A stretch of 61,273 nucleotides of DNA, the filler included, from Asterionella formosa (lineage: Eukaryota), in the NCBI GenBank assembly GCA_002256025.1. It is 14 parts of 14 records of this genome, joined end to end, with 100 filler letters (N's around TTAATTAATTAA, not from the genome) between each part and the next. Parts side by side here need not be neighbours in the genome. Positions count along the whole stretch, not along the records: positions 13,191 to 17,477 come from NKIB01013604.1; 13 more parts are not named here. One strand, given 5' to 3'. The position numbers and the translations under genes were made by a program. This document shows positions 1,412 to 61,273 of the stretch, piece after piece. Below the pieces are notes generated by a model. It worked only from the letters and a program-made list of their open reading frames with translations. It did not search any database and had not been told where the DNA came from. Position 1 is the first letter of the stretch. Every line of letters begins with the position of its first letter.

Positions 1412-4252
1412 CTAGTAGCAAACATCAGTTGCATTCGGTTCTGAGCAACAACCACATATTAAATCACAGCCCACCATGGAAGTAGTAACTTCACCTAAAT
1501 TCTCGCAAACTCCTAACGGAACTTCTCCAAGGAAAAAATTACCAGCAACAAAAAGTTTCTGGAGCTTCGTAAGCATACCAAGAGAACTGGGCAACGAGCC
1601 AGTCAAACTATTGTTGGCAACATTCAACTCAGTCAACAATTCAAGCATTCCTAATTCAGGTGGTAAAGATCCAGTAAGCTTGTTGTTTTGGAGATAAACT
1701 GCTGTCAGGAGTGACATGTAACCAATGGAAGTAGGTATGGTTCCATCAATTTCGTTGTCATTAAAGGAAAAATGGTCTAGGTTTGTTAACCCTTGGAAAG
1801 CGTCAGGAAGAGAACCTCTAAGGCTACAGTTGTGCAGGTGCAAGTCACGAGCATTCCGAAAATTTCCAAGTAGTCCGCTAATGCTTCCACCAAGTGGATT
1901 GTCATTCAAGGCCAGAAATTCAAGCTGGGGAAACTTGCTATATAGCTCAAGTGGAATGCCCCCAGTGAGTCTGTTATTAGATACGTCAAGGGAACTCAAA
2001 GAAGTGGTGAATCCCAATGGAATAGTCCCATTAAACTGGTTGCCTGCAGCTCCAAAGAATTCAAGCGATTGCCATCCCTGAATATCATTTTGAGCTGGGA
2101 TGGAACCTGTGAATGCATTTCCTGATAAATCAATGTACTTAAAGGTAGGAATTAATGCCATTATATCTGGAAGAGTACCCGTCAGCTGATTATATGAGAT
2201 GTCTGCTCGTTGAAGTTTAAAGAAGATGCCTACAAAATCAGTAATGTTAACAGACTCAACACCTGGAACACTGCCAGATATGCGATTGTGTGAAAGGGTA
2301 AATTCTTGACGACCCAACATTTCCTTGCCTAAATTTGGCAAATTTCCCGAAAACTGGTTATTGTCAAGATAGATAAAATCGAGACTAACCAAACCAACGA
2401 AAGGAGGAATGGTCCCATTCAATGTGTTGATCTGGATGTTCAATGAGCCCAATGAAACAAGATTAGTAATATTTTGAGAGAGTGTCCCAGTGAGTTTGTT
2501 CTTGGAGAGATCTAACTTTTTCAATAGCCCAAGAGTGTATGTTGAGGACGGGATTGTGCCAGTTAATGTGTTATCGAACAACTCAAGAAGAAGGAGATCT
2601 TGAAGGTTTCCAATTCCTTTTGGGACTGGTCCACTTAACTGATTGGCACTCAAATCAAGATTTACAAGATTGGTCAGCTCCGAAATCTCTGGAGGTATCG
2701 TTCCATTGATAGCATTTTTTGCAAGACGAAGAAGAGTCAAACCCTCAATTAAACCGATCTCGCTTGGGATTTGGCTGCTGAGTCCATTTCTTGTTAAGTC
2801 GACTCCAGTTACAACTTGTTTTCGACTGAAGTCGGATGCACAAGTGACACCAATACTCCAGTCACAAACATGAAGGATCGGCGACAGCCATTGCTCTTGT
2901 TCCAACCAATTCTCACCTTTCATGGCATAGTAGAATACGGTTAGAATGTATCGTTCAGAGAAAATCAATCCTACGCCTTCGGTATCAAATTCATCCACTG
3001 ATGACAACCAACCAACAGCTCGACGCTGTGGCGATTCAGGAGTTAAGACAGTTTCAGAACCCGAAATGGCAATAGCTGCTCGTTCAAAATCAGCAGTGAT
3101 AAAGGAAGGAGCAGATGTAGGTGACATGGTCGGTTCGCTGGTCACAACAACTTGTGGATCTCCACCAGATCCTTTTAAAGCAAATACAATTGCTCCGACA
3201 CTTCCTCCAACAATGAGGAAACAAACGAAAGCAAATAGATGACGAACTGACCTGTCCTTGAGAATATATTTTATTCCAAAACTGGCTGACTCGGCATAGA
3301 CGATATCCTCGTCTTTTTCAATGACAGGTACAGCTTCAATGTAAGCAGAGCCCATGTTTGCTTCAACATCCAATTCTCCAAACTCCTGATTAATTTGGTC
3401 ATTCCATGGCCGCTCGGCACGACGAGGCGTACCAAAGGCAAGGCCTTCCATTTCGACGGCTCCAGGACGATCCGCTCGGGGGAAATGAGCACGGCCTCGT
3501 GATGGCATGGATTGTGTCACGGGCCGCTCGACAATGGCAGTGTCCTCTCTCCCTGGTGGTGCACTCTGCTGCCGGCGGGAGGCACCACCATGCATCGCTT
3601 CCATGTTCTTTTCATGAAGTGATTGCATAGCATGTCGGTGGTCATTCCTGAAAGCAACAGGAACGGCAATATCCCTTGGAGGCATGGGTACAGTATTATT
3701 GGCTGAAAGTTGTTGTTGTTGTTCTTCTTCGAAGCGATCTGCCATTTCCTCGGCAATATGAGAATCTGTTCCGACCGAGATCAAATACTGAATCAACAAC
3801 ATTCGCGTGTCTTCCGCTTCTTCTCCTGGACGCCGCCGAGCAACGGGCATACTAGGAGCACGAGCTGCAGCAAGAGGCCCACGAGGACTCGCAGAGGGAG
3901 GCACGGATACCATATACCTTTGCTCATTCTGCTCACGTTTTGCACGGTTAATCCCTTGCTCCAATGCGCGAATGACATTGCTGGCAACGCTACCATCATT
4001 GTCGTCATCATCATCAAAAATGGCAAACTTGTCAATGTCATGAGAGTTATTTCTACTAGTAGCTGGCAAAATTGTGTTTGGAGCCGTAGCATCAGATACA
4101 AATGTTTCCATCCCACATTGTTGCTGCTCTTCAAATCGAGTCGCCAGTTTTTCAGCTACTGCGGGGTTTGCTCCAGCAGAAATCATGTACTGAACCACCA
4201 AATCATGCGTGTCCAAAGGGGAATGATGGGACACTTGAGACTTGGCAGCCAT
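1412..4252 (-). CDS. Leucine-rich repeat type II membrane protein (receptor-like, no kinase), 946 aa
   Basis: Uninterrupted ORF with a low-complexity N-terminus, one hydrophobic segment (LFAFVCFLIVGGSVGAIVFAL), a PTxSPT stalk and an LRR N-cap (ERYILTVFYYAMKGENW...WLS...CDWSIGVTC). Many plant-type LRRs (LxxLxLxxNxLxGxIP) follow, then a Cys-rich end (CDLICGCC). This architecture is common in diatoms. Confidence 0.9.
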   Translation of the reverse strand: MAAKSQVSHHSPLDTHDLVVQYMISAGANPAVAEKLATRFEEQQQCGMETFVSDATAPNTILPATSRNNSHDIDKFAIFDDDDDNDGSVASNVIRALEQGINRAKREQNEQRYMVSVPPSASPRGPLAAARAPSMPVARRRPGEEAEDTRMLLIQYLISVGTDSHIAEEMADRFEEEQQQQLSANNTVPMPPRDIAVPVAFRNDHRHAMQSLHEKNMEAMHGGASRRQQSAPPGREDTAIVERPVTQSMPSRGRAHFPRADRPGAVEMEGLAFGTPRRAERPWNDQINQEFGELDVEANMGSAYIEAVPVIEKDEDIVYAESASFGIKYILKDRSVRHLFAFVCFLIVGGSVGAIVFALKGSGGDPQVVVTSEPTMSPTSAPSFITADFERAAIAISGSETVLTPESPQRRAVGWLSSVDEFDTEGVGLIFSERYILTVFYYAMKGENWLEQEQWLSPILHVCDWSIGVTCASDFSRKQVVTGVDLTRNGLSSQIPSEIGLIEGLTLLRLAKNAINGTIPPEISELTNLVNLDLSANQLSGPVPKGIGNLQDLLLLELFDNTLTGTIPSSTYTLGLLKKLDLSKNKLTGTLSQNITNLVSLGSLNIQINTLNGTIPPFVGLVSLDFIYLDNNQFSGNLPNLGKEMLGRQEFTLSHNRISGSVPGVESVNITDFVGIFFKLQRADISYNQLTGTLPDIMALIPTFKYIDLSGNAFTGSIPAQNDIQGWQSLEFFGAAGNQFNGTIPLGFTTSLSSLDVSNNRLTGGIPLELYSKFPQLEFLALNDNPLGGSISGLLGNFRNARDLHLHNCSLRGSLPDAFQGLTNLDHFSFNDNEIDGTIPTSIGYMSLLTAVYLQNNKLTGSLPPELGMLELLTELNVANNSLTGSLPSSLGMLTKLQKLFVAGNFFLGEVPLGVCENLGEVTTSMVGCDLICGCCSEPNATDVCY

Positions 4253-4303: not shown

Positions 4304-4403
4304 NNNNNNNNNNNNNNNNNNNNNNNNNNNNNNNNNNNNNNNNNNNNTTAATTAATTAANNNNNNNNNNNNNNNNNNNNNNNNNNNNNNNNNNNNNNNNN
4401 NNN
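4304..4403. other. Artificial contig-joining spacer (N-run, TTAATTAATTAA, N-run); first of 13
   Basis: The same 100-nt spacer with six-frame stops recurs at 8698, 13091, 17478, 21864, 26247, 30630, 35012, 39393, 43773, 48150, 52526 and 56900. Contig lengths fall steadily from 4303 to 4274 bp. Confidence 0.99.
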
Positions 4404-4404
4404 T

Positions 4405-7400
4405 GAAAGCTACAAGAGTTTGGTAGTAGGAAGGTTCGGCCTGGCGCGCAACACGCTAACGGTCGAAGAGATTAAGACAGACATCCCGGACTACTACGAT
4501 CTATATGTCCGGGATGACGTCAAAACGACTAACAAGAACAAGAGTGAACAGGCCTTCTACACGAAAGGGAAGTTCAAAGGTGACTGTCGTAAGTGTGGCA
4601 AGTATGGCCACAAGGCGGCTGAATGTCGCAGTAAGGGCAATAGTGCCGACAAGAAGGAGCTCACTCCTGAGCAGAAAGAAAAGAGGAAAACGATCAAGTG
4701 TTTCAAGTGCCAACGCATGGGACACTACGCAAGTGAGTGCACCAGTAACAGTGCATCTAAGAATAATAAAAACGAAGAAAACAACACGACTACATCTACC
4801 CAGCAAGGAATGTTCGTCGCCACGTGTGTCGAAATTAGTTACAACGAGGAAGTCAACCTCGCTCGTGACGTCAGAAATCGCTGGTTGTTAGACAGCGGTG
4901 CTACTGTTCACATCTGCACAGACGTGCGCATGATGGAAGACAAGAAACAAGTGAGTGAAACGGTCGTGGTAGGGAATGGAACTGAGATAGTATCAACTGT
5001 CTCTGGTACCGTGACCCTGACGACTACGGACGAAGGAAAATGCTTGAAACTCACCGATGTGCTTTATGCACCGGAGTTCAAGCAGAACATCATCAGTGTC
5101 TCTAGAATGATCGACAAGGGTAATCAAGTGATCTTCGAGGATGATAGGATGACGATAAGAAACAAGAGCGGTTTTCTAACCTGCAAAAGAGATAAAACTC
5201 GAAAGCTCGGAGCAATGTATCATGTCGAAGGTAATCCGATCATCAAGCAAACGGTGATGGAAGTCGATCAACTGCAAGAGAACGCGACACAACAATCGAT
5301 CGACGACTACAACGAAAACGATTGGACGAAAGTTGAAGCAAAGAAAACGAACAAAGGAAAGAACAAATGGAATAATCAAAATGGTGAGTTTGAAAATAAT
5401 TATGTGATTGTCGATATCAATGAAGCGCATGCGATGCTTGGTCATGTGGGCGAGAAATGTTTGCACGATACGGCGAAATTATTTGAATGGAAGTTGAGCG
5501 GCATCATGACAGTGTGCGCAGGCTGTGCGGCAGCGAAAGCGAAAGCACGAGCCGTCCCAAAAACAACGCAAGAAAAATCGACGGTACCTGGAGAGAGACT
5601 GTTTGTGGACATCAGCGGACCCTACGCGAAATCCGCTGTTGGCAATCAGTACTGGGTCATGGCAGTGGACGACTACACAAGAAAGCGCTGGAGCTATTTC
5701 ATTAAAAAGAAGAGCGATATCGGAACAGTCATTGAAATTTTACTATCAAGTTTAGCCGGAGCCGGTCACAAGACAAAGTATGTCCGTTGCGATGACGCAG
5801 GCGAGAATACTAAACAATTGAGAAAGGTATGTGAAAATCGCGGCATAAAAATGGAATTTACTGCCCCGCACACTCCACGTCACAATGGTGTAGTGGAACG
5901 CGGTTTTGTCATTGTGCGACAGAGGGCACTAGCAATGATGCTAAGTGCGAAACTAACAGATGAGTACCAAGGGCTATTATGGGCAGAGGCGGTACATACA
6001 GCTACACGTTTAACAAATAGTACAGTTAACTCAGTAACTAAAAGAAGTCCCGACGACATGTTCTACGGCGAAATGAATCCAAGAAGGCCCTACAAGTTAT
6101 ACAAGCAATTTGGGCGCGTAGGATGGGTTACTGCAAGACACGGCATTAAGAAATTAGACGCACGTTCTTTCAAGTGTGTCTTTTTGGGTTATTTGGAGGA
6201 CCACTCCCAAGATACGTATCGTATGTATAATCATGAGACTAACGCTGTAATCAATACACGCGATGTTAAGTGGAGTGAGTGGCATGGAACAAATGCACCT
6301 ACAGACGGACTAGGAAAAATCTACAAGGACAGTGCTAAAGAGAAAGTAACAGTTCAACCAGAAGCTGAAGTCAATAATGATGGATTAGATGATGATTTCT
6401 ACAATGAAGATTTACTACCAGAAGGTTCAGACAACAAGGAAGATGATGACGACAAGGATAAAGCAACCGCAGACACTGAAAAAGGAAAATCTACCTCAAG
6501 GAGTGATGAAATTTCTGACCTAGAAAAGAGAAATGTTTTGAAGCAACAGGCAAAGTTGGAACGAGAAATGAAGAAGTTGGACTCATCATACAATCCAACT
6601 AAAAATGTTAAATTCACTTCAGACACTTCACTACCAAATGTGATTGAGGAGGAAGCTTCTTCGAATAAGGAAACTGAAGTAAATTTCGTATTCAATGCAA
6701 GTCTTGCATCGGACCCAGGTTTACCAAATAGTTATAATGAGGCAATGGTAAGACCTGATCGCAAAGAGTGGATGAAAGCTATAAAGAAAGAATTTGAAAA
6801 CTTCCAAGCAAGAGGAGTGTGGAAAATAGTTAAGAGAAATGACGTGAACAAGAGAGCTCTTAAGACAAGATGGGTCTTCCGTATTAAGGAGGACGTGATA
6901 ACCGGAAAGACAGTATACAAGGCACGGTTGGTTGTAAAGGGATATGAACAGATCCCGGGAGTTGATTTTACTGAAACATTCGCTCCTGTTGCAAGTGATG
7001 CTACAATAAAAACTGTTCTGGCTGTTACTTTGTACTACGGTTGGATAGCGGAAGCAATCGATGTTGAAGCAGCGTTTTTAAATGCTGACGTCGACGAAGA
7101 CATTTATATTGAGCCCCCAGAAGGATTGACAGGGATCGATCAGAATATACATATCTGCAAATTAATTAAGGCTATGTATGGAATTGTACAAGCTCCAAGA
7201 TGCTGGTCTAAGACATTTGCGAAATGCGTCACCAGCAAGAAAGGTATAACGAAAAGTGAAATAGACCCAATGTTGTTTATCTACCGTAACAACGATGGAC
7301 AAATTGAAGGGCTGTTGGCAAACTACGTGGATGATGGAATTATTTGTGGTACCAGGAATGCAGTCGACTATATGAAAAATATGATCAAGGAGGATTTTAA

Positions 7401-8517
7401 TATCACGGAACAAGGTCCCCTACGAAAACACTTAGGTGTGGAATATATGCGCAAGCATGACAAATTTGGAGAATACTGGGAAGTACAACTGAAGAAATTT
7501 CGTACTGAAATGCTACTGGAATATGAAATGCTTACTGGTAAGAAGATAAAGTCTTATGCGACACCAGGAGCACCAGGAAAAACATTAGGAGCCAATAATG
7601 GAGAAACTATTATGGAGGCGGAATATCGCAAGATTGTTGGGAAACTATTATGGTCTACTAAGAAAGATTCCCCGGACTGTGCCAATGCAGTACGTGAATT
7701 ATCTTCGTATTTAAGCTGTCCAGGCGAAGAACACTGGGATGGAATTTCACGAGTTGTTGGATTCTTATCAAGCAAATTGGACAGAGTTCTCAAGATTCGA
7801 AAACCAAAGGAATTACGGGTTATTGCTTATGTTGATAGTGACTGGGCTGCTAATAAGGTAAGCCGGAAAAGTACTACGGGTTTTCTGGTTACCATTGGTG
7901 GTGCGTTGATCAGTTGGCAATCAAAGGGCCAGTCATCCGTTACGCTATCAAGCACAGAAGCAGAATACGTTGCAATGTCGCAATGTGCTCAAGAGATTAA
8001 ATTTATTGCAATGTTACTCAACGAAGTGACAGGTGGCAAAAATATCCTACCAAGCATTTTACATGAGGATAATACAGGTGCAATATTCACAGCGAAGAAT
8101 CAACAACTTGGAACAAGAACAAAACACATTGATATTAAGTTTCATCATGTCAAGAACATGATAGATGAGGGTGAGTTGCATATTGTTTTTCTAAGATCAG
8201 AAAACAATCCAGCAGACATTTTGACGAAGAATGTCAAAGAGCAGATTTTTACAAGGTTATCTGGACCCGTGCTGAGTGGTACAATTTTAGAACTTCTTGA
8301 ACATGGTAACGAGGAGGATGTCAAGAATATAGCATCAATGGCTATAATGAGTCACAAGGACTGTGGACTCGACTATAGTCCAATGAGTCAAATGGTGCGT
8401 TCCCATGTCAAGAAGCTTGCTAACGAGATTGATGTCTTAGATCAATCAGAAGAAGGTTTACATCAACGAAAAGGGAACACGAAGAACAGGTTCTCGAAGT
8501 GTGATGAATGGGATTGA
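4405..8517 (+). CDS. Copia gag-pol polyprotein (partial at 5' end, no internal stops)
   Basis: Frame is open from the contig edge. Two CCHC knuckles (CRKCGKYGHKAAEC, CFKCQRMGHYASEC), protease WLLDSGATVH, integrase HHCC plus D-D-E (FVDISGP, RCDDAGE, VVERG), RT YKARLVVKG and YVDD, RNase H YVDSDWA/EAEYVA/EDNTGA/NPADILTK. Confidence 0.96.
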   Translation, partial: ESYKSLVVGRFGLARNTLTVEEIKTDIPDYYDLYVRDDVKTTNKNKSEQAFYTKGKFKGDCRKCGKYGHKAAECRSKGNSADKKELTPEQKEKRKTIKCFKCQRMGHYASECTSNSASKNNKNEENNTTTSTQQGMFVATCVEISYNEEVNLARDVRNRWLLDSGATVHICTDVRMMEDKKQVSETVVVGNGTEIVSTVSGTVTLTTTDEGKCLKLTDVLYAPEFKQNIISVSRMIDKGNQVIFEDDRMTIRNKSGFLTCKRDKTRKLGAMYHVEGNPIIKQTVMEVDQLQENATQQSIDDYNENDWTKVEAKKTNKGKNKWNNQNGEFENNYVIVDINEAHAMLGHVGEKCLHDTAKLFEWKLSGIMTVCAGCAAAKAKARAVPKTTQEKSTVPGERLFVDISGPYAKSAVGNQYWVMAVDDYTRKRWSYFIKKKSDIGTVIEILLSSLAGAGHKTKYVRCDDAGENTKQLRKVCENRGIKMEFTAPHTPRHNGVVERGFVIVRQRALAMMLSAKLTDEYQGLLWAEAVHTATRLTNSTVNSVTKRSPDDMFYGEMNPRRPYKLYKQFGRVGWVTARHGIKKLDARSFKCVFLGYLEDHSQDTYRMYNHETNAVINTRDVKWSEWHGTNAPTDGLGKIYKDSAKEKVTVQPEAEVNNDGLDDDFYNEDLLPEGSDNKEDDDDKDKATADTEKGKSTSRSDEISDLEKRNVLKQQAKLEREMKKLDSSYNPTKNVKFTSDTSLPNVIEEEASSNKETEVNFVFNASLASDPGLPNSYNEAMVRPDRKEWMKAIKKEFENFQARGVWKIVKRNDVNKRALKTRWVFRIKEDVITGKTVYKARLVVKGYEQIPGVDFTETFAPVASDATIKTVLAVTLYYGWIAEAIDVEAAFLNADVDEDIYIEPPEGLTGIDQNIHICKLIKAMYGIVQAPRCWSKTFAKCVTSKKGITKSEIDPMLFIYRNNDGQIEGLLANYVDDGIICGTRNAVDYMKNMIKEDFNITEQGPLRKHLGVEYMRKHDKFGEYWEVQLKKFRTEMLLEYEMLTGKKIKSYATPGAPGKTLGANNGETIMEAEYRKIVGKLLWSTKKDSPDCANAVRELSSYLSCPGEEHWDGISRVVGFLSSKLDRVLKIRKPKELRVIAYVDSDWAANKVSRKSTTGFLVTIGGALISWQSKGQSSVTLSSTEAEYVAMSQCAQEIKFIAMLLNEVTGGKNILPSILHEDNTGAIFTAKNQQLGTRTKHIDIKFHHVKNMIDEGELHIVFLRSENNPADILTKNVKEQIFTRLSGPVLSGTILELLEHGNEEDVKNIASMAIMSHKDCGLDYSPMSQMVRSHVKKLANEIDVLDQSEEGLHQRKGNTKNRFSKCDEWD

Positions 8518-8697: not shown

Positions 8698-9582
8698 NNN
8701 NNNNNNNNNNNNNNNNNNNNNNNNNNNNNNNNNNNNNNNNNTTAATTAATTAANNNNNNNNNNNNNNNNNNNNNNNNNNNNNNNNNNNNNNNNNNNNCGT
8801 AGATGAGCTCACTTTAATAACAAAGTGACACAAGCTTTCAATAGAGAAACGCTAAATATAATACTGAAAGCTGAGGAGAACCAACCAATGCTTTTCATAG
8901 CCGAACAATTCCACCCTATAGTTCTCTACCGTTAGCCACTCACATGGGAGGGGATCTACTGGGTACAAGCAGCTCACCTGCGAAGGGCCAAGATTGCCAA
9001 TTTCGATGAGCTAGTTGTTATTGCCTCTGCAGATCCAGATCACGAAAGAGTGCCCATGTCCATGACTATCCGATTGAAATACAGACTTGTGTGTTAAAAT
9101 GGTGTTCTATATGTAGTAGTGGTTACACCCCTCTTGTGAGGACTCTCCTTCATTGATGCAACAAGTGGCGCAATCGATTTGTTCATAGGGTCCTGGCAAA
9201 CGCTACTTGAAAGCCATCCTAGCCTGTCGTTTGCATGTCCTCACAATTGTCATCTGTGCATTTAAAATATAAGCCTCCGCCAAAGATAAGATGTGAGTAG
9301 ACATGGCAATTGTGGGATGAATATCATAAGGTATATGTTTCCGATTGCCTGGGGTAGATCGGGGACACACATCTCTCGACAATACCACGGAAAAGCATGC
9401 AGTAACTACTAATGTTCTAGATCCACTTTTTGGCCAGAGGCATATGCAAAAACTTTTTTACAATCTGTTGAGGAATGCTCTGCAATGAAATGAAATTTAA
9501 AAAGTTTGCTTGCATACGGCTAATTTTGCTTGTATACGGCTAACATCCTCGTGTCCCCAAAACCACTACATGTTGTCATTTA

Positions 9583-11499
9583 TTACGTCGTCATGTAGGA
9601 GCTCACGTCCAATTCATCCGGAAGGACGGGAATGGAAACTTCAAATCGGCTCTGCACCTTATCGAGGATCTCCTTGTCAGCATCACTGGAGATAAACGAG
9701 ATCGCAATACCCTTGGTTCCGAAACGACCAGCGCGACCAACACGGTGAAGGAACTGGTCAGAATCGTCAGGGAAGTCGTAGTTAATAACGACATTGACAC
9801 GTTCGATATCAATTCCGCGACCAAAAAGATCGGTGGAAACTAGGATACGCGCATTGAACTCTTTGAATGACTTGTATTTGGCAATGCGCTCTTCTTGCTT
9901 TTGTCCAGCATGGATGCAAATAGAAGGGAAATTACACTCGGTCAAGAGACGATTAAGCTCGTTTGCGCGAGCAACCTTGGACACAAAAATGACAACCTGA
10001 TTAAATTCCAAAGCGTCGAGTAAGTCATTCAACTTACGGTTCTTTTCCGCCTCTGCGAGCTTCGTGTAATACAACTGCAAACCGTGGAGAGTCAATTTCG
10101 TATCATCGTCAACGTAAATCTCCATAGGATCTTGACAAAACTTTTTACAGACAGGACGTATTTCCTTGCTGAGAGTAGCACTGAACATCATGACCTGCTT
10201 TTCATGAGGTGTCATTTTGAAGATTTCCTGGATATCGCGACGCATATCAAGAGACTCCAAAATTTTGTCACACTCATCTAGGACGAAATGTTTGATGTGA
10301 TCTAGCTTCAGTGCCTTCTCACGAGCGAGACCAAGGACACGTCCAGGTGTTCCGACAACAATATGAGGGCAGTCGCTCTTCAAGATATCTCGGTTCTGCT
10401 GAATGGGCACACCGCCGTAAAAAACAGCAGTCTTTACATCTGGAAGGTACTTGGCGAAACGTTCGTACTCATGAGCAATCTGGAAGGCAAGCTCACGTGT
10501 GTGACAAATAACCAAAACGGAAACTTGGTTTTCGCCTTCAGGGAAGGCCGATGGGTTAAGCTGGTGGAGGGTGGCAAGAACAAAGACAGCAGTCTTTCCC
10601 ATTCCAGACTTTGCCTGACAGACAATGTCCATACCAAGGACAGCCTGAGGAATACATTCATGTTGGACCTCAGATGGATGCTCAAATCCGCAATCAACAA
10701 CAGCGCGGAGACATTCTGGCTTCAAAATGAAATCCTTGAAACCAGACGCATGTATACCGACATAGTGACCCCTGTTCCGAAGAAAGTGATGGAGGAATGA
10801 TAATGTTTAGTCTTCGAGTTTGATCTGTGATGGATGTATTGAGTTTCTTTCGTTGTGTGTTTGGTTGGGATTTTAGGGGAACAGAAGCTGATACATTGTC
10901 CATGATTACAACGATCGTTTGAAAGGATCATTCCAATACACTGATGTTGTTTTGTCGAAACCGAGCGAGTTGCGGATAGCAGATATGCGTTTCATTGACC
11001 TGAAGCAACCCACGTGGGTGGCTCGCTCCACAGGTCATGCCATTCCTCAAGTGCCAAACGGTCACAAAACTCTCGTGCATCGGTCAGGAAGGTCGCAGCG
11101 CCGCAGCCCCAAACAGTCTCCTGTTCACACAAACCTGCACAATCTGATACTCTCCATCATCCATCACAACGAAGCTTCCTGCATTCGCGCTTTTTGATTA
11201 TAACATTTCAACGCGTACAACTCAAAGTATTACGTTAGACTCACTTCTTGACATCTTTGGTATCGACCGAGGCCTTGTCCACCGAAACGTCGGCTACTTC
11301 CTATTTTGAAAAATCGAAAAATAATTATTTGTTGGAGCAGTTCAAAAACAGACATTAGTACGACGGTCACCGGCAAGACGGCACAATGATCTGAAACGCC
11401 AATCAAATCATTGCATTACAATGGCTCGTCCCCTTGCCTTTCTCGTACCTCTTCTTCGTCGTAGTCGACCAGTTCTTCTTCGGGATCGTGGTCTGCCAT
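9583..11499 (-). CDS. UAP56: UAP56/Sub2/DDX39B DECD-box RNA helicase, 431 aa; exons 11499-11449, 11300-11245, 10771-9583
   Basis: Motifs [29 protein letters not shown] and [10 protein letters not shown]. Removing two GT-AG introns (11448-11301, 11244-10772) gives 1296 nt in frame and the conserved N-terminus [17 protein letters not shown]...[21 protein letters not shown]. Confidence 0.96.
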
Positions 11500-12545
11500 G
11501 GTGGATGCTGTTGTTGGATGGAGGGAAAGACTTGGGACGATGAGATCGCTATGGACGACACAAAATGACTTGGAAAGTCAAGGCAAGGTGTGTGAAGCCT
11601 GCAGCAGCTTTGGTATTTACTATCATAATTGTACAACAACTCTTGGAGTAAGGAGTGAGTTCCGTTACCGTACCCGGACCAGGTACCGGTAGTCCATCTT
11701 AGCTAAATATGAATGATGGTCAGTAGGTACCTGGTACGGGTACATGCGGTACCAGGTGCCTGGTAGGTTGTCTAAATACCACAAATAATTAAGTCCATCT
11801 GCTTCAGCAGGATTGGACAAAAGGAAAGCCCCAACCTTACAGGGGTACCTGGTACCAGTACCTGGTACTGTTTGAAAAGATGAAACGATCATTATACTCT
11901 TCCACCGGTATAAATAACGGTAGGTTGATACCGCTACCGGGTACCTGGTACATGCATACATGCAGGAGCCTGGTTCAAGGGGTACCTGTTGGTAGTCTCT
12001 GTGAGGGCCTCAATAAAATATGATCCGAATAAGAATATTTGCATATGCAAACGTGTTTCTATTAACATTTTAGTATTCGCCTCGATTTTATTGTGTACTG
12101 TTAAATAGAAGGATATACCAGTAATAATTTTCATTATGACCTGTTAAATTGGGAGTAAAGAAAGACGTATGCACTAGTTATACTTGCAATTTAGGATAGC
12201 TCCCTTGCTAACCGAAACACTTTAATAAGGACAACAAACTGCCTATATTACAACCTGGTACTAGTACCATCAGGATTGGTACTATATTAAGGCCATGACG
12301 GGACCGGCAAGTGTAGCTACATGAAGATTTCTGCGTGGAAAACACAGTTTTGGCTCGTTTGCGATTCTATATGTTAGACCCTGGCAGGGGAGAAGTGAAG
12401 GGGTGTGTGTGATGACCTTACCCATTTTCTGCTGAACCATCACCCGACTGGTTGCATCTCATGAATCGTGCGTATAAGGTCCCCTTCCACAATCCATTTG
12501 CGGAAAAAAATATTTCAAGATTTATAATTATACATTGCTTTTTCG

Positions 12546-13088: not shown

Positions 13089-13521
13089 GTNNNNNNNNNN
13101 NNNNNNNNNNNNNNNNNNNNNNNNNNNNNNNNNNTTAATTAATTAANNNNNNNNNNNNNNNNNNNNNNNNNNNNNNNNNNNNNNNNNNNNCTACTGTCCA
13201 CATAGCTATAGTTATAGAATGATTCTGATTAGAACGCATTTCATTTTCATATCGCTCGCTCGTTTCTGCATTTGGCATACTGTACTTGAATTAACTATTG
13301 AACTTGTCCGCATCTTTGATGCCATCAAGAGAGCGAAAGCAAGTGGCTCTTTTCACTGTTGTTTGCTCGTAGGAATAATTTGATATCTGTATCGTCATTT
13401 GCTTGTTGAAATTGTCCGTTGCCTCAAACTTGCTTGCCGTGTGCGTGCAGACATTGTCGACTGGTTTTCAATGGTATGTTGTTCTTGTATTCACTGTTGA
13501 ACTTGTCCGCATCTTTGTTAC

Positions 13522-13807
13522 TGTTGAATATGTGTAATGGACATGTCGGTAACGGTTACACCAATTACACCGATATTGGCAATGACCGCACCAACCATGC
13601 CAGCGTGCAAACCAACGAACAAGAGTGGATCACAGCTGAACCAAGAAATATCAGGATTAGAGATAGTGTGTCTGGTACCAGCGAAACTGGCTCACTTTAA
13701 TTTAATTATTTGGTTTTATAAACAATACCATCCCGTTGTGCTTTTTTATCGTCGGATTCGTTGTTTTATGGACACGAAGACATATTGAGAACATTGTGGT
13801 TTCAACA
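13522..13807 (+). repeat. Family A LTR (286 bp), TGTTGAA...TTCAACA
   Basis: Perfect 7-bp terminal inverted repeats. Homology with contigs 13 and 14 starts exactly at TGTTGAA, where those copies have a PPT and this copy has unique flank. Confidence 0.92.
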
Positions 13808-13830
13808 TAATTAAATTAAAGTTAAATAAG

Positions 13831-16800
13831 ATGGACAAGGTGAAAACAGAAGGTGGGGACGCCGCCATGAAGGTTGACAAGGATTTCGGCATTGATGCCA
13901 AGAAAAGAGGTCGCTTCAACTTCGGAAAGCAACAGGCATCTCGGACACCAGCCGCAACGAAATTCGAAGGCAAATGCAACGAATTAAGAGGAAATATGTA
14001 TGACTGCTCGGATATGAAGCAAGCAGACCTATTCGCAAAGACGACGAAGGAGATTGCAGGTTTCGTAGGGCGCACCTACAAATACGGTGGTGACATACGA
14101 TTGGTGGTTGAGAACCTTGAGATGGTCAGCATCACTACACCTAAGGATCCACCAAAGGATTCTACACGCACAGATGAACGAATTTGGGAGAAAGAAGTGG
14201 ATGAGTTTGTAAAGAGGTCAACATACCTCAAAGAAAACATCAAGACACTATACTCCCTTGTAGTCTATGGGGACAATGCACGGATATAATGCAGAAGAAG
14301 GTTGAGGCCACGGACATATTTGAAACAATGTCAATGGAAGGCAATGGTTTGACTCTCCTTAAAGTCATCAAGGACGTCAACTATAACTTCCAAAGCCAGA
14401 AATACCTGCCTCACTCCCTATACGAATCCAAACGCAGGTTCTATATGTGTGTCCAGGGACGAAACATGACGACACAGGTCTACCTAGAACACTTCCAGAA
14501 CATGCTAGATGTTATTGATCACAGCGGAGGGACCATTGCTGGCGACTCAGGAATCGAGAACATGATTCTGAATGAAAAGACAACTAGCAAGGAGAACATG
14601 AATGATCAACAGTTAAGTGAACTCAAGGCAGAGGTACTCAAGCGATTCACAGCAGTAGCATTCCTAGTAGGAGCTGATCGTGTACGCTACGGCCGTCTGG
14701 TTGATAATATGGAGAACGACTTCCTACAAGGACGAAACAACTATCCCGAGACCGTCAGTGCAGCCTACCATCTACTAACAAACTGGAAGCAGGATCCACG
14801 GCATGGGCTACACGAAGTAGGGGCAGTTGGTGATGGCGTATCCTTTCACAATGTGAATGACAAAGATGGAACGACACTGAACAACAACAGCGAGAATGGC
14901 GCGCGGAAAAGGCCAAAAGGAAAGGCACACATCATGTGCCACCGATGCCAAAAGAAGGGGCACTACGCTACGGAATGTGAGGAGCCTGCACCTGTCCCTA
15001 GGAATTTGACCACCAGTACTCCTCCCACAGCTGAAACGACATCAACCCAGTCCGCCACCACACTACTAATGGATGGTGCGCATGAGGGAGAATTCGAGGA
15101 AAATGTACACTTCCAATTTCTAAATCAAGGAGGAGTGAGTCTGAAAATTGGGCCCGATGGAAGGCTACCACGTACATGGATACTATTAGACAATCAGTCA
15201 ACAGTTGATGTGTTCCATAACGCGGAACTCCTACGCAACATCCGTGTCCACACCAGTAAGATGGATATCCACTGCAACGCTGGTATAATCAGCACCCAAC
15301 TCGTCTCATAGGAGACCTTCATGGATATGGAACAGTATGGTACAACCCAAAGGGAATCGCGAACATCCTGTCCCTCGCATGTGTCAAGGAGCATGGATAC
15401 AGGGTAACATTTGATAGCAGCCAGGGCAATGCATTCCATGTTCACAAACCTGACGGAACCTATAGAGTGTTCAAAGAATCAATGAAAGGCCTATACTACA
15501 TGGATACAAAGGATCGCTCTGGAGTCACCCTTATCAATACGGTAGACGATAACCGTACTAGCTACTCCCAACGTGACTACTCACAAGCTGTGCTAGCCCG
15601 AAAGATACAGAAGATTATTGGGCGTCCTAGTACCCGCACATTCATCAAGATTGTCGAGAACAACCTGTTCCCAAACTGCCCAATCACACGCGATGACATT
15701 ATAGCGGCAGAACAAATCTTCGGGCCCGATGTGGGCTCGCTAAAAGGAAAAACAGTGCACCGTAGTTCAGTGCCAGTGAGGACCAACTCTACCACCATCC
15801 CCGCCGGGATTATCGACAAGTACCGTGTCGTGACACTTGCAGGTGACATCATGTTTGTCAACATTATGCCCTTCCTTGTCACCATATCAAGACACATCAA
15901 ATTTAGCATGGGCTCCTCGAAAACCGATGGCTACCAACAATAATCAAGGCCATTGACAATGTGCGCAAACTCTACATAAAAAGAGGTTTCCAAATCGAAA
16001 CAATCATCATGGATGGACAATTTGACGGACTGCGGGCCAACTTAGCCGAAATGGGAATGACACTCAACAGTTCTGCAAATGACGAGCATGTCCCTGAGGT
16101 TGAATGCCACATTCGCACACTTAAAGAACGAGTGCGATCTGTCTACAACATGTTACCATTTGCCAAAATGCCAGCTCGTATGATTATCGAGCTTGTCTAT
16201 TATTGTGGGTTCTGGCTAAACAGTTTCCCAGCCCACGGTGGAATATCTCCTACTCTCAGTCCACGCACTATAATTGCAGGCATGACCATTGACTACAACC
16301 ATCACTGTAAACTTGAGTTTGGAACATACGCACAAGTCCACGAGGAACACGATAACAGCATGACTGCACGCACGGTTGGGGCCATTGCCCTACGCCCAAC
16401 AGGAAACCACCAGGGCGGACACTTCTTTTTCAGCCTAAGCACAGGTCGCGTCCTAAACCGCAGCCATTGGACTGTGCTGCCAATGCCCACTGATGTTATC
16501 GATCGCGTTCACAAAATGTCATGTCGGGATGAAACTGAAGTCACCCTATACTTTGCCACAAAACGCGGTCAGATTGAAGATGAGATGCATGACGATGTTG
16601 ACGATGACCCCTTTGATCCAGCCAACAATGACAATACTGACGAAGATGATGACGACAACGCTGATGCCGCAGCACCCGTCCACATCGTAGGAGTGAATGA
16701 CAATAGCGATGTAGAAGGTGTAGAAGATGGAGACGAATACGATCTCGAAGCCACGGAACCAGGCAACGAACTAAACGAAAACACTGCCGAACTCAACGAT

Positions 16801-17343
16801 GAAGAAGAAGTCGACAAGGAACCCAACCCGCCTGATAATGATGAACCAAGAGCTGACAACAGCGATGTAGATGGTGAAGACAAACACGATCCCGAAGCCA
16901 CGGAACCAGGCAACGGAATAAACGAAGACACTGCCAAACCCAACAATGAAGAAGAGGTCGATGAGGAACCCAGTATCGAACAACGGATTCAACAAATGGA
17001 CGCCGCATATGGCCAGAGACAACACCAATACGATCTGCGGGCTCGCAAGCCTTGCGACTATAGTCACCTACATGTCATACTAGAAGTCACCGTCATGACC
17101 CAACACAACATAAAGAAAGGGCTAAAAGTATTCGGCGAAGCCGGTGTGGAGGCTGTGCTTAAGGAATTGAACCAATTACATGAACGTGGAGTACTCAAAC
17201 CAACAAAAAACTTATCACATGAGCAGCGCACGGATGCACTACAATACCTCATGTTTTTGAAACAAAAACGCAATGGAACAATTAAGGGCCGTGGCTGTGC
17301 TGATGGTCGGAAGCAACGTCAGTACACAACTAAGGAAGAAGCT
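13831..17343 (+). pseudogene. Frameshifted gag-pol of family A copy 1
   Basis: Frameshifts near 14263, 15303 and 15910 split one polyprotein into ORFs of 152, 340, 158 and 479 aa. It is cut by an insertion at 17344. Confidence 0.9.
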
Positions 17344-17477
17344 ACATCTAAGACGCGAAATACGCCACTTTTCGAAATTTCGTCTACGTATGAGTGTTAA
17401 TTATGTGGTACTTCACATGCATTAATGCCACTCTTCACGTAAAAAAGATTACTTTTAACTGTTTCATGTGAAGTTTT
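17344..17477 (+). mobile_element. Terminus of an unclassified element (ACATCTAAGACGC...) inserted into copia RT
   Basis: RT homology stops abruptly after KEEA. The same sequence occurs at 56766-56899 and 57000-57133, and with a different flank at 26347-26558 (minus strand). Confidence 0.75.
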
Positions 17478-52625: not shown

Positions 52626-55600
52626 GGACCAGGTATTTTTTGGAGGCACAGGGGTATGATGTACAGGAGTCTATCATATATCAAGATAACCAAAGCACTA
52701 TGCTGCTGGCAATGAATGGAACAGCTTCAAGCAGCCGTCGAACACGTCACATTAATATCCGATATTTCTTTGTGGCAGACCGGGTCACATCAGGGGAAGT
52801 GAAAATAGAATACTGCCCAACTGCACAAATTTTAGCCGACTATTTTACAAAGCCTTTGCAGGGGAATCTATTCCGCACGATGCGGAACATGATCATGAAT
52901 GTTAATCCTACATCAGACCACACTTATGCCATGCAGGATTATAGGAGTGTGTTGAATATGTGTAATGGACATGTCGGTAACGGTTACACCAATTACACCG
53001 ATATTGACAATGACCGCACCAACCATGCCAGCGTGCAAACTAACGAACAAGAGTGGATCACAGCTGAACCAAGGAATATCAGGATTAGAGATAGTGTGTC
53101 TGGTACCAGCGAAACTGGCTCACTTTAATTTAATTATTTGGTTTTATAAACGATACCATCCCGGTGTGCTTTTTATCGTCGGATTCGTTGTTTTATGGAC
53201 ACGAAGACATATTGAGAACATTGTGGTTTCAACAGAATTAAATTAAAGTTAAATAAGATGGACAAGGTGAAAACAGAAGGTGGGGACGCCGACACGAAGG
53301 TTGACAAGGATTTCGGCATTGATGCCAAGAAAAGAGGTCGCTTCAACTTCGGAAAGCAACAGGCATCCCGGACACCAGCCGCAACGAAATTCGAAGGCAA
53401 ATGCAACGAATTAAGAGGAAATGTGTATGACTGCTCGGATATGAAGCAAGTAGACCTATTCGCAAAGACGACGAAGGAGATTGCAGGTTTCGTAGGGCGC
53501 ACCTACAAATACGGTGGTGACATACGATTGGTGGTTGAGAACCTTGAGATGGTCAGCATCACTACACCTAAGGATCCACCAAAGGATTCTACACGCACAG
53601 AGGAACGAATTTGGGAGAAAGAAGTGGATGAGTTTGTAAAGAGATCAACATACCTCAAAGAAAACATCAAGACACTATACTCCCTTGTATGGGGACAATG
53701 CACGGATATAATGCAGCAGAAGGTTGAGGCCACGGACATATTTGACACAATGTCAATGGAAGGCAATGGTTTGATTCTCCTTAAAATCATCAAGGACGTC
53801 AACTATAACTTCCAAAGCCAGAAATACCTGCCTCACTCCCTATACGAATCCAAACGCAGGTTCTATATGTGTGTCCAGGGACGAAACATGACGACACAGG
53901 TCTACCTAGAACACTTCCAGAACATGCTAGATGTTATTGATCACAGCGGAGGGACCATTGCTGGCGACTCAGGAATCGAGAACATGATTCTGAATGAAAA
54001 GACAACTAGCAAGGAGAACATGAATGATCAACAGTTAAGTGAACTCAAGGCAGAGGTACTCAAGCGATTCACAGCAGTAGCATTCCTAGTAGGAGCTGAT
54101 CGTGTACGCTACGGCCGTCTGGTTGATAATATGGAGAACGACTTCCTACAAGGACGAAACAACTATCCCGAGACCGTCAGTGCAGCCTACCATCTACTAA
54201 CAAACTGGAAGCAGGATCCACGGCATGGGCTACACGAAGTAGGGGCAGTTGGTGATGGCGTATCCTTTCACAATGTGAATGACAAAGATGGAACGACACT
54301 GAACAACAACAGCGAGAATGGCGCGCGGAAAAGGCCAAAAGGAAAGGCACACATCATGTGCCACCGATGCCAAAAGAAGGGGCACTACGCTACGGAATGT
54401 GAGGAGCCTGCACCTGTCCCTAGGAATTTGACCACCAGTACTCCTCCCACAGCTGAAACGACATCAACCCAGTCCGCCACCACACTACTAATGGATGGTG
54501 TGCATGAGGGAGAATTCGAGGAAAATGTACACTTCCAATTTCTAAATCAAGGAGGAGTGAGTCTGAAAATTGGGCCCGATGGAAGGCTACCACGTACATG
54601 GATACTATTAGACAATCAGTCAACAGTTGATGTGTTCCATAACGCGGAACTCCTACGCAACATCCGTGTCCACACCAGTAAGATGGATATCCACTGCAAC
54701 GCTGGTATAATCAGCACCCAACTCGTCTCATAGGAGACCTTCATGGATATGGAACAGTATGGTACAACCCAAAGGGAATCGCGAACATCCTGTCCCTCGC
54801 ATGTGTCAAGGAGCATGGATACAGGGTAACATTTGATAGCAGCCAGGGCAATGCATTCCATGTTCACAAACCTGACGGAACCTATAGAGTGTTCAAAGAA
54901 TCAATGAAAGGCCTATACTACATGGATACAAAGGATCGCTCTGGAGTCACCCTTATCAATACGGTAGACGATAACCGTACTAGCTACTCCCAACGTGACT
55001 ACTCACAAGCTGTGCTAGCCCGAAAGATACAGAAGATTATTGGGCGTCCTAGTACCCGCACATTCATCAAGATTGTCGAGAACAACCTGTTCCCAAACTG
55101 CCCAATCACACGCGATGACATTATAGCGGCAGAACAAATCTTCGGGCCCGATGTGGGCTCGCTAAAAGGAAAAACAGTGCACCGTAGTTCAGTGCCAGTG
55201 AGGACCAACTCTACCACCATCCCCGCCGGGATTATCGACAAGTACCGTGTCGTGACACTTGCAGGTGACATCATGTTTGTCAACATTATGCCCTTCCTTG
55301 TCACCATATCAAGACACATCAAATTTAGCATGGGCTCCTCGAAAACCGATGGCTACCAACAATAATCAAGGCCATTGACAATGTGCGCAAACTCTACATA
55401 AAAAGAGGTTTCCAAATCGAAACAATCATCATGGATGGACAATTTGACGGACTGCGGGCCAACTTAGCCGAAATGGGAATGACACTCAACAGTTCTGCAA
55501 ATGACGAGCATGTCCCTGAGGTTGAATGCCACATTCGCACACTTAAAGAACGAGTGCGATCTGTCTACAACATGTTACCATTTGCCAAAATGCCAGCTCG

Positions 55601-56765
55601 TATGATTATCGAGCTTGTCTATTATTGTGGGTTCTGGCTAAACAGTTTCCCAGCCCACGGTGGAATATCTCCTACTCTCAGTCCACGCACTATAATTGCA
55701 GGCATGACCATTGACTACAACCATCACTGTAAACTTGAGTTTGGAACATACGCACAAGTCCACGAGGAACACGATAACAGCATGACTGCACGCACGGTTG
55801 GGGCCATTGCCCTACGCCCAACAGGAAACCACCAGGGCGGACACTTCTTTTTCAGCCTAAGCACAGGTCGCGTCCTAAACCGCAGCCATTGGACTGTGCT
55901 GCCAATGCCCACTGATGTTATCGATCGCGTTCACAAAATGTCATGTCGGGATGAAACTGAAGTCACCCTATACTTTGCCACAAAACGCGGTCAGATTGAA
56001 GATGAGATGCATGACGATGTTGACGATGACCCCTTTGATCCAGCCAACAATGACAATACTGACGAAGATGATGACGACAACGCTGATGCCGCAGCACCCG
56101 TCCACATCGTAGGAGTGAATGACAATAGCGATGTAGAAGGTGTAGAAGATGGAGACGAATACGATCTCGAAGCCACGGAACCAGGCAACGAACTAAACGA
56201 AAACACTGCCGAACTCAACGATGAAGAAGAAGTCGACAAGGAACCCAACCCGCCTGATAATGATGAACCAAGAGCTGACAACAGCGATGTAGATGGTGAA
56301 GACAAACACGATCCCGAAGCCACGGAACCAGGCAACGGAATAAACGAAGACACTGCCAAACCCAACAATGAAGAAGAGGTCGATGAGGAACCCAGTATCG
56401 AACAACGGATTCAACAAATGGACGCCGCATATGGCCAGAGACAACACCAATACGATCTGCGGGCTCGCAAGCCTTGCGACTATAGTCACCTACATGTCAT
56501 ACTAGAAGTCACCGTCATGACCCAACACAACATAAAGAAAGGGCTAAAAGTATTCGGCGAAGCCGGTGTGGAGGCTGTGCTTAAGGAATTGAACCAATTA
56601 CATGAACGTGGAGTACTCAAACCAACAAAAAACTTATCACATGAGCAGCGCACGGATGCACTACAATACCTCATGTTTTTGAAACAAAAACGCAATGGAA
56701 CAATTAAGGGCCGTGGCTGTGCTGATGGTCGGAAGCAACGTCAGTACACAACTAAGGAAGAAGCT
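52626..56765 (+). mobile_element. Copia family A copy 2: RNase H end, PPT, LTR (52950-53234), frameshifted gag-pol (53258-56765)
   Basis: RNase H C-terminus YQDNQSTMLL...RTRHINIRYFF...ADYFTKPLQG, purine-rich AGGATTATAGGAGTG, an LTR, then gag. Near-identical to copy 1 and shares two of its frameshifts and the RT insertion. Confidence 0.93.
52950..53234 (+). repeat. Family A LTR (285 bp)
   Basis: TGTTGAA...TTCAACA, near-identical to 13522-13807. Confidence 0.92.
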
Positions 56766-57133
56766 ACATCTAAGACGCGAAATACGCCACTTTTCGAAAT
56801 TTCGTCTACGTATGAGTGTTAATTATGTGGTACTTCACATGCATTAATGCCACTCTTCACGTAAAAAAGATTACTTTTAACTGTTTCATGTGAAGTTTTN
56901 NNNNNNNNNNNNNNNNNNNNNNNNNNNNNNNNNNNNNNNNNNNTTAATTAATTAANNNNNNNNNNNNNNNNNNNNNNNNNNNNNNNNNNNNNNNNNNNNA
57001 AAACTTCACATGAAACAGTTAAAAGTAATCTTTTTTACGTGAAGAGTGGCATTAATGCATGTGAAGTACCACATAATTAACACTCATACGTAGACGAAAT
57101 TTCGAAAAGTGGCGTATTTCGCGTCTTAGATGT

Positions 57134-60100: not shown

Positions 60101-61273
60101 TGTCCTTGATGACTTTAAGGAGAGTCAGACCATTGCCTTCCATTGATATTGTTTCAAATATGTCTGTGGCCTCAACCTTCTGCTGCATTATATCCGTGCA
60201 TTGTCCCCATACAAGGGAGTATAGTGTCTTGATGTTTTCTTTGAGGTATGTTGACCTCTTTACAAACTCATCCACTTCTTTCTCCCAAATTCGTTCATCT
60301 GTGCGTGTAGAATCCTTTGGTGGATCCTTAGGTGTAGTGATGCTGACCATCTCTAGGTTCTCAACCACCAATCGTATGTCACCACCGTATTTGTAGGTGC
60401 GCCCTACAAAACCTGCAATCTCCTTCGTCGTCTTTGCGAATAGGTCTGCTTGCTTCATATCCGAGCAGTCATACACATTTCCTCTTAATTCGTTGCATTT
60501 GCCTTCGAATTTCGTTGCAGCTGGTGTCCGGGATGCCTGTTGCTTTCCGAAGTTGAAGCGACCTTTTTTCTTGGCATCAATGCCGAAATCCTTGTCAACC
60601 TTCGTGGCGGTGTCCCCACCTTCTGTTTTCACCTTGTCCATCTTATTTAACTTTAATTTAATTATGTTGAAACCAAAATGTTCTCAATATGTCTTCGTGT
60701 CCATAAAACAACGAATCCGACGATAAAAAGCACACCGGGATGGTATCGTTTATAAAACCAAATAATTTAATTAAAGTGAGCCAGTTTCGCTGGTACCAGA
60801 CACACTATCTCTAATCCTGATATTCCTTGGTTCAGCTGTGATCCACTCTTGTTCGTTAGTTTGCACGCTGGCATGGTTGGTGCGGTCATTGTCAATATCG
60901 GTGTAATTGGTGTAACCATTACCGACATGTCCGTTACACATATTCAACACACTCCTATAATCCTGCATGGCATAAGTGTGGTCTGATGTAGGATTAACAT
61001 TCATGATCATGTTCCGCATCGTGCGGAATAGATTCCCCTGCAAAGGCTTTGTAAAATAGTCGGCTAACATTTGTGCAGTTGGGCAGTATTCTATTTTCAC
61101 TTCCCCTGATGCGACCCGGTCTGCCACAAAGAAATATCGGATATTAATGTGACGTGTTCGACGGCTGCTTGAAGCTGTTCCATTCATTGCCAGCAGCATA
61201 GTGCTTTGGTTATCTTGATATATGATAGACTCCTGTACATCATACCCCTGTGCCTCCAAAAAATACCTGGTCC
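57134..61273 (-). mobile_element. Copia family A copy 3 (reverse-complement variant of contig 13)
   Basis: Same length and structure as 52626-56899. SNPs are concentrated in RH, LTR and gag; the integrase-side ORF translations are identical. Confidence 0.93.
60665..60949 (-). repeat. Family A LTR (285 bp)
   Basis: TGTTGAA...TTCAACA on the minus strand. Confidence 0.92.

Follow-up and report, generated by a model that had tools for sequence, protein, structure and literature searches.

A lineage of Ty1/copia retrotransposons found in the diatom Asterionella formosa carries, directly behind the 5' LTR, a short sequence that is the reverse complement of a segment inside the same LTR. The pairing lies at a fixed position and is maintained among related elements by changes on both sides, at a place where no tRNA-type primer-binding site (PBS) is present. 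We interpret the two arms as the primer and the PBS of a self-priming element, a reading to which we assign a probability of about 0.8, and we give the same weight to Tf1-like self-priming across the whole diatom Ty1/copia lineage. A Tf1-like self-primer had been proposed in the preliminary description of this DNA, on the basis of a few copies, and the conserved and covarying pairing described here supports that proposal.

Family A and its complementary arms

The window, i.e. the whole stretch of 61,273 nucleotides that was analysed, consists of 14 contigs of about 4.29 kb each, arranged from longest to shortest and separated by 13 linkers composed of 44 N, the 12-base stop-codon word TTAATTAATTAA and another 44 N. 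As it is made of joined contigs and is not one piece of the genome, any feature spanning a linker is an artefact. This applies to a 116-nt "inverted repeat" (56784-56899 / 57000-57115), which was discarded because it lies across the linker between contigs 13 and 14.

Three copies of the element, referred to as family A, are present in the window, on contigs 13191-17477 (copy 1), 52626-56899 (copy 2) and 57000-61273 (copy 3, minus strand). Their features are listed in Table 1. None of the three copies has a 3' LTR within the window. The 5' flank of copy 1 is unrelated to the element, whereas in copies 2 and 3 the 3' end of pol is found upstream of the LTR, giving the layout pol 3' end, one LTR, gag. 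Since these two contigs begin in the 3' end of pol and pass through a single LTR into gag, they are circular permutations of the element. The permutation would result either from an assembly cycle through the LTR or from a tandem array sharing an LTR. Contigs 13 and 14, 4274 nt each, are mutual reverse complements at approximately 98-99% identity. A second LTR-leader junction was observed 5.1-5.2 kb past the first in the metagenome contigs L012, L025, L026, L027 and L042. Judging from the unit length, a full element would measure about 5.5 kb.

Table 1. Positions of the linkers and of the family A features in the window.
Feature	Position	Strand	Remarks
Linkers	4304-4403, 8698-8797, 13091-13190 and so on		13 in total
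Copy 1, 5' LTR	13522..13807	+	286 nt, TGTTGAA...TTCAACA; three-copy alignment and string check
Copy 1, putative self-primer arm	13694..13709	+	16 nt, ACTTTAATTTAATTAT; family-wide core of 14 nt, 13695-13708
Copy 1, putative PBS arm	13807..13822	+	ATAATTAAATTAAAGT; last LTR base plus 15 nt; family-wide core of 14 nt, 13808-13821
CTCA, initiator-like motif directly 5' of the primer arm	13691..13694	+	conserved in relatives
Hairpin A, TGGT...ACCA, directly 3' of the primer arm	13711..13730	+	MFE fold
Conserved U5 hairpin, 3 + 4 pairs, one bulged U	13758..13777	+	covariation
gag start codon	13831..13833	+	23 nt past the LTR
Copy 2, LTR	52950..53234	+	285 nt; pol 3' end and PPT-like ...ATAGGAGTG (52941-52949) upstream
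Copy 2, putative primer arm	53122..53137	+	
Copy 2, putative PBS arm	53234..53249	+	G at 53235 breaks the pairing; 14 nt exact
Copy 3, LTR	60665..60949	-	three-copy alignment
Copy 3, putative primer arm	60762..60777	-	one internal change
Copy 3, putative PBS arm	60650..60665	-	

As to the boundaries of the LTR, on the left the likeness of the three aligned copies begins at 13522, 52950 and 60949, respectively. On the right, contigs from RNA libraries match the element up to 53234/53236 and then diverge. The LTR end was further fixed by two relatives that have both LTRs and 5-bp target duplications. TGG, as in a tRNA-type PBS, was not found directly after the LTR.

The two arms of copy 1 are exact 16-nt reverse complements lying 97 nt apart. 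This pair had been pointed out in the preliminary description and its coordinates were confirmed, while a string check bore out the short leader between the LTR and the gag ATG and the lack of a TGG-type PBS in it. The behavior reported for the two other copies also held. In copy 2, pairing is limited to 14 nt (53122-53135 with 53236-53249) because of the G at 53235, a position at which contigs of three RNA runs carry a T. In copy 3, the arms differ by a single internal mismatch, and the change lies in the 5' arm.

Dinucleotide-preserving shuffles of the LTR were compared with the 24-nt leader. In 20,000 shuffles, a complementarity of 16 nt was never reached, and the maximum of 14 nt occurred once. 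Over the whole window, a single exact inverted repeat of at least 14 nt with a loop of 20-300 nt is unrelated to the family (25351/25413), the others belonging to the family A copies or to the linker artefact. The predicted fold of the whole region was no more stable than those of shuffled sequences (z of -1.08 and +0.63), and the arm duplex is itself AT-rich and weak. Fold energy is not significant, and the case rests on covariation.

Conservation and covariation in related elements

The gag ORF of copy 2 encodes 491 aa, with a zinc knuckle and weak Pfam matches. It has 265 relatives at E <=0.001 in the protein collection, and those few that carry a name are from the diatoms Fragilaria crotonensis and Attheya. 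A gag profile of 39 sequences yielded 79 metagenome loci, with gag 26-97% identical. An initial search for the longest exact inverted repeat with its 3' arm within 70 nt before the gag ATG detected stems of 14-18 nt in 34 of 42 loci (those in which an ATG had been assigned and no less than 200 nt of upstream sequence was available).

For the formal count, the best 14-mer inverted repeat was determined in the 44 of the 79 loci in which 250 nt or more precede the expected gag start, and in two control zones inside gag (79 zones in all). In the target zone, the best 14-mer had no mismatch in 31 loci, one in 8, two in 1 and three or more in 4. The corresponding numbers for the control zones were 0, 0, 2 and 77. 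A 14-mer inverted repeat with at most one mismatch was thus present at 39/44 target loci vs 0/79 control zones. A survey of this kind had been suggested when the pair was first noticed, and its outcome is that related loci keep the pairing, with compensatory changes. Among the five loci above one mismatch, the U5 end and the PBS have been lost in L020, no LTR can be recognised upstream in L034 and L038, the site of L066 lies 296 nt before the expected ATG, and L072 shows two mismatches.

When all 310,870 locus bases were scanned, such repeats were found almost only at this place or at the second LTR-leader junctions of wrap-around contigs, with four unrelated matches. The repeat at L018:14507/14631, which is GC-rich and located in unrelated sequence, was rejected as off-target. 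The two relatives with both LTRs, L018 and L059, are flanked by the target duplications ATTAC and ATAAT, respectively, and their LTR ends at the A directly before the arm. In both of them the PBS arm follows the 5' LTR and not the 3' LTR. The LTRs of L018 are 99% identical and its stem is perfect; those of L059 are 95% identical and its stem contains one mismatch. Another two loci, L051 (1085-1228) and L052 (251-394), are near-identical and have an LTR end mutated to CAATA. Their gag match does not begin before query residue 220, at the leader itself, and the gag N-terminus of this family is possibly shortened or very divergent.

All families display the same layout: gCTCA, a stretch of 14 variable nucleotides (N14) mostly followed by T, CTGGTTTAC, about 95-100 nt containing the U5 hairpin, GTTTCAACA, and the complementary N14. 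The two arms have independent anchors, the 5' arm being located between gCTCA and CTGGTTTAC and the 3' arm starting at the last A of GTTTCAACA. Most families have their arms about 95-100 nt apart, the extremes being 86 and 129. Immediately 5' of the arm (positions -4 to -1), the bases of CTCA are present in 34 (C), 37 (T), 36 (C) and 37 (A) of 40 sequences. In 31/40 sequences the T after N14 is paired to the LTR's final A, and in nine it is missing or unpaired, so that the core duplex corresponds to the 14 nt immediately behind the LTR. In the window family, one extra pair at each end brings the duplex to 16. The gag ATG is located 1-56 nt behind the stem, and in several families the leader between arm and ATG is reduced to 1-3 nt.

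The sequence of the arms varies widely within this fixed frame. There are 30 distinct 14-mers among the 40 sequences, and close relatives (L018 vs L011, L003 vs L004) differ by single compensated changes. This variation bears on the possibility that a host tRNA, a tRNA half or an organelle tRNA fragment binds the site, the match with the LTR being secondary. Plant copia elements that use internal tRNA segments, namely half-tRNA-Met or half-tRNA-Ile, are described in passages of PMC6317226. However, each 14-mer matches its own LTR, a pattern that no set of tRNAs could follow, and ARAGORN found no tRNA gene in the whole window. As the site varies between families and always matches its own LTR, there is no room for a shared tRNA primer, and the likelihood of a tRNA-derived primer appears very remote.

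Covariation was assessed on alignment A3, comprising copy 1 and 39 loci (40 sequences); these were preselected for a stem of at least 9 nt, and the unbiased figures are those of the 44-locus count. From the plain MAFFT alignment, RNAalifold predicted the 14-bp stem alone, with changes on both sides at 14/14 pairs. With the structure as specified, 97.4% of the stem cells were paired. When the partner columns were slid by 1-3 positions, stem and U5 hairpin being taken together, 36-45% of the cells were paired, and the observed pairing values were reached by 0/500 shuffles. In the U5 hairpin, 90.8% of the cells were paired and both-side changes occurred at 7/7 pairs.

A covariance model derived from A3 gave 65 matches in 372,143 bases, including all three window copies and loci outside the training set. 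Copies of the 3' LTR, which have no PBS arm, received lower scores (78.3 vs 125.5 bits, and 49.7 vs 95.0). The matches were assembled in alignment A6, which is fitted to the stem and the U5 hairpin, and not to hairpin A. The U5 hairpin was also predicted on A6. Moreover, three pairs of hairpin A were predicted de novo by RNAalifold on this alignment, with GC to AU changes in 19/65 sequences.

These data also settle the question of chance complementarity in AT-rich sequence, a coincidence that the preliminary description had itself named among the findings that could overturn its proposal. The arms are indeed AT-rich, and a sizeable fraction of cells still pairs in the slid registers. Nevertheless, this explanation is refuted by the LTR shuffles, none of which gave 16 nt, and by the excess of target loci over control zones, and it is ruled out by the maintenance of pairing through compensatory changes across relatives. 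The probability left to it is practically nil. Conversely, it is virtually certain from these comparisons that the arm pairing is a conserved and selected feature.

Predicted priming scheme and competing explanations

From this arrangement we infer where transcription starts, that the duplex is cleaved and that the 5' arm serves as primer. Transcription would begin at, or just after, the conserved CTCA inside the LTR. The first 14-15 nt or so of the RNA would then loop back across some 97 nt of structured U5, with its two conserved hairpins, and the RNA 5' end would anneal to the 14 nt directly past the LTR (16 bp in the window family). If the element behaves as Tf1 does, the duplex would be cleaved at its inner end, and reverse transcriptase would extend the resulting 3'-OH through U5. 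Finally, plus-strand strong-stop synthesis would copy the primer back, so that each cycle would rewrite the PBS from the 5' end of the element itself. Copying of the primer during plus-strand strong-stop synthesis is standard retroviral logic. Rewriting of the PBS in each cycle would explain both the free co-change of primer and PBS and the presence of the same two boundaries of complementarity everywhere.

The predicted start is at 13694 or 13695. Complementarity ends at the CTCA boundary in all families, the arm directly following this motif, and the A of CTCA is the usual start base. In most families this A is unpaired, which would mean either that transcription starts one base further on or that the primer has a one-base 5' overhang. 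For the first strand transfer to work, R must extend beyond the primer. A TATA-like box upstream of CTCA was considered and dropped, as an "ATAG"-type word is present in some families, at no fixed distance. If the predicted start is true, the lineage would provide a defined diatom promoter that lacks a TATA box and carries a conserved initiator.

RNA runs X1, X2, X5 and X6 were compared as contigs, which carry no read starts. No loose poly(A) ends appeared among them, and U3 is left uncovered in X5 and X6, a gap to which no weight is given. The element (52700-53600) was detected at 95-100% identity in freshwater and estuary metatranscriptome contigs (X1, X2 and X6), and a fraction of 0.67 of the sampled words was present in run X1. 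The element, or copies close to it, thus seems to be widespread in such samples; DNA carry-over is possible, and presence in an RNA library is no proof of transcription.

The conserved stem might alternatively be a structural or regulatory RNA only, the element using some other primer. Occlusion of the poly(A) signal in the 5' LTR, packaging, dimerisation and control of gag translation are roles that such a stem could fulfil. Pairing and covariation as such indicate a selected RNA duplex and not primer use, the arms are AT-rich, some of them with AATAAA-like words, and the stem ends near the gag ATG. However, many arms, for example those of L068, L073 and L047, contain no AATAAA-like word. There is also no alternative PBS, given the missing TGG and the gap of only 1-3 nt between arm and ATG in several families, and the duplex begins exactly at the LTR end. 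A PBS must lie directly after the LTR. Furthermore, a purely structural stem would need two independent mutations per change, whereas a PBS templated by the primer explains covariation at all 14 pairs. We therefore consider a purely structural or regulatory role unlikely.

Priming by the element's own 5' sequence could also take place in trans, if the PBS annealed to a short fragment of the 5' end or to another, co-packaged RNA. The same complementarity would serve in cis and in trans, and sequence cannot separate the two. Nevertheless, the arm distance is held within the narrow limits given above in most families, and the intervening U5 contains conserved hairpins. Together these features suggest one folded molecule, and priming in trans appears decidedly improbable compared with fold-back of the RNA 5' end onto its own PBS.

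Classification and comparison with known systems

The classification of family A rests on its relative L026, whose intact polyprotein of 1606 aa contains an RVT_2 domain at residues 1124-1348 (E 1.9e-13, 51 bits, cut-off 31.6). The copies in the window are cut short where RT begins, and no Pfam RT or integrase match was obtained for their pol pieces; the L026 polyprotein also gave no Pfam integrase match. In alignments with L026, the window ORF 55329-56819 covers residues 677-1169, a stretch upstream of the RVT_2 region that reaches into it, and the window pol tail covers residues 1510-1600. The RVT_2 domain of L026, together with these alignments, assigns the lineage to Ty1/copia. Other Ty1/copia features are the TG...CA ends of all copies and the 5-bp target duplications of L018 and L059. 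The integrase is tentatively placed before RT, by position and motif reading. Membership of the Tf1/sushi group (Ty3/gypsy) was rejected, since the relative has a copia-type RVT_2 and the region before its RT aligns with the window ORF. Family A is thus predicted to be Tf1-like in its working, and not in its family.

Several additional features of the coding region were observed. All three copies contain a 147-nt tandem duplication, 86% identical (16719-16972, 56141-56394 and 57505-57758), in an acidic Asp/Glu-rich linker between the integrase-like region and RT. The family A pol frame (52628-53128) remains open for about 75 codons past the conserved C-terminal motif and runs 179 nt into the LTR, where its stop codon TAA (53126-53128, equivalent to 13697-13699) lies inside the primer arm. 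In L026, pol ends about 6 residues after the same motif. The longer frame of family A could reflect a lineage-specific pol tail encoded by U3, or could be open fortuitously. A short purine-rich word ending AGGAGTG immediately precedes the 3' LTR in family A (at the position given for copy 2 in Table 1) and in L018 (about 11682-11690), and L059 has CAGCAGTG at this place. This word can tentatively be regarded as a conserved, if weak, candidate polypurine tract.

To our knowledge, self-priming is proven only for Tf1, and cases elsewhere consist of single-element sequence matches. Tf1 reportedly needs a U5-IR-like stem-loop, as Lin and Levin are said to have described in 1998. According to passages of PMC7175516, the initial 11 bases in the Tf1 RNA anneal to the PBS, and RNase H cleaves between bases 11 and 12. 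Self-priming, proven for this element, is proposed for the Tf1/sushi group (parts of PMC7175516 and PMC4600332), and it was proposed from sequence for Tj1 of S. japonicus (parts of PMC4600332).

The diatom lineage resembles Tf1 and Tf2 of Schizosaccharomyces pombe, Tj1 and the Tf1/sushi group in that the PBS past the 5' LTR complements a segment of the element's own LTR taken as the RNA 5' end. It also shares with the Tf1 group the absence of a tRNA site and the presence of a structured U5 between primer and PBS. Unlike the members of that group, which are Ty3/gypsy elements, family A belongs to the Ty1/copia superfamily, with INT (as assigned by position) before RT. The duplex is 14-15 bp long in the diatom lineage (16 in family A), a case known from sequence alone, vs 11 in Tf1. 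Finally, the host of family A is a stramenopile alga and those of Tf1/sushi elements are fungi or vertebrates.

Among copia elements, a sequence-based prediction of self-priming exists for the plant TAR lineage, which has Houba and Osr-1 among its members; the criterion was that at least 10 bp of the 5' LTR be complementary to a site beginning 0-5 bp behind it (passages of PMC6317226). The caution about novelty expressed in the preliminary description was therefore justified. Family A is similar to TAR as a copia element with sequence-predicted self-priming, and goes beyond TAR as described in the main text of PMC6317226 by its fixed anatomy, family-wide covariation and conserved U5 hairpins. 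The comparative support is, for a prediction drawn from sequences, much stronger than is usual for self-priming.

The fungal GalEa copia elements also have no tRNA PBS, and their "Conserved Hairpin Site" includes the last A of the 5' LTR (passages of PMC5445492). Family A is like GalEa in both respects, having a conserved self-complementary sequence that includes this A. In contrast to family A, whose partner sequence lies about 97 nt upstream inside the LTR, the GalEa site is a local palindrome or hairpin for which no complement in the LTR was found, as stated in the same passages.

The CoDi-like diatom copia elements (Maumus et al. 2009; Llorens et al. 2009) are likened to family A by diatom host range and copia type alone. 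In the CoDi literature, PMC2806351 contains "PBS" once, as a buffer, and PMC2774666 contains neither "PBS" nor "self-prim". Priming terms are absent from PMC8147415 and from bioRxiv 10.1101/2025.10.24.684338, and priming of diatom copia elements is not described in the portions considered of PMC5445492, PMC3601003 and PMC5776459. More generally, no description of it was found in the main texts of openly available papers.

With self-priming proven for Tf1 and predicted for TAR, the diatom case extends the prediction of a known mechanism to a large new lineage and to a new group of hosts. On balance, we lean towards a broader view, in which a diverse diatom Ty1/copia lineage gave up tRNA primers, is primed by its own first 14 nt or so and has its PBS rewritten in every cycle, so that both drift together. 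It would be the first such lineage outside fungi, vertebrates and land plants, and would have arisen independently of Tf1/sushi and TAR or be a relic of ancestral hairpin priming. The idea of an ancestral hairpin-priming state of LTR elements is mentioned in a passage of PMC3601003.

The lineage offers at least 30 natural primer/PBS variants in one fixed architecture, and this set constitutes covariation data for the rules governing primer length, cleavage position and U5 structure. These abundant diatom elements will be overlooked or wrongly scored by pipelines for LTR elements that require a tRNA-type PBS. Elements of the lineage can be found with the covariance model, or with the simple rule "CTCA-N14 ... 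CAACA-N14 complement".

Other contigs of the window carry unrelated genes. A second, more typical copia polyprotein, unrelated to family A, is encoded at 4420-8517 (+). It comprises 1365 aa and matches the Pfam families zf-CCHC, Pol_BBD, rve, SH3_retrovirus and RVT_2; its contig contains no LTR, and hence no primer site to compare. Host genes are located at 1412-4252 (-) and 9583-10725 (-), and encode a 946-aa leucine-rich-repeat protein and a DEAD-box helicase, respectively.
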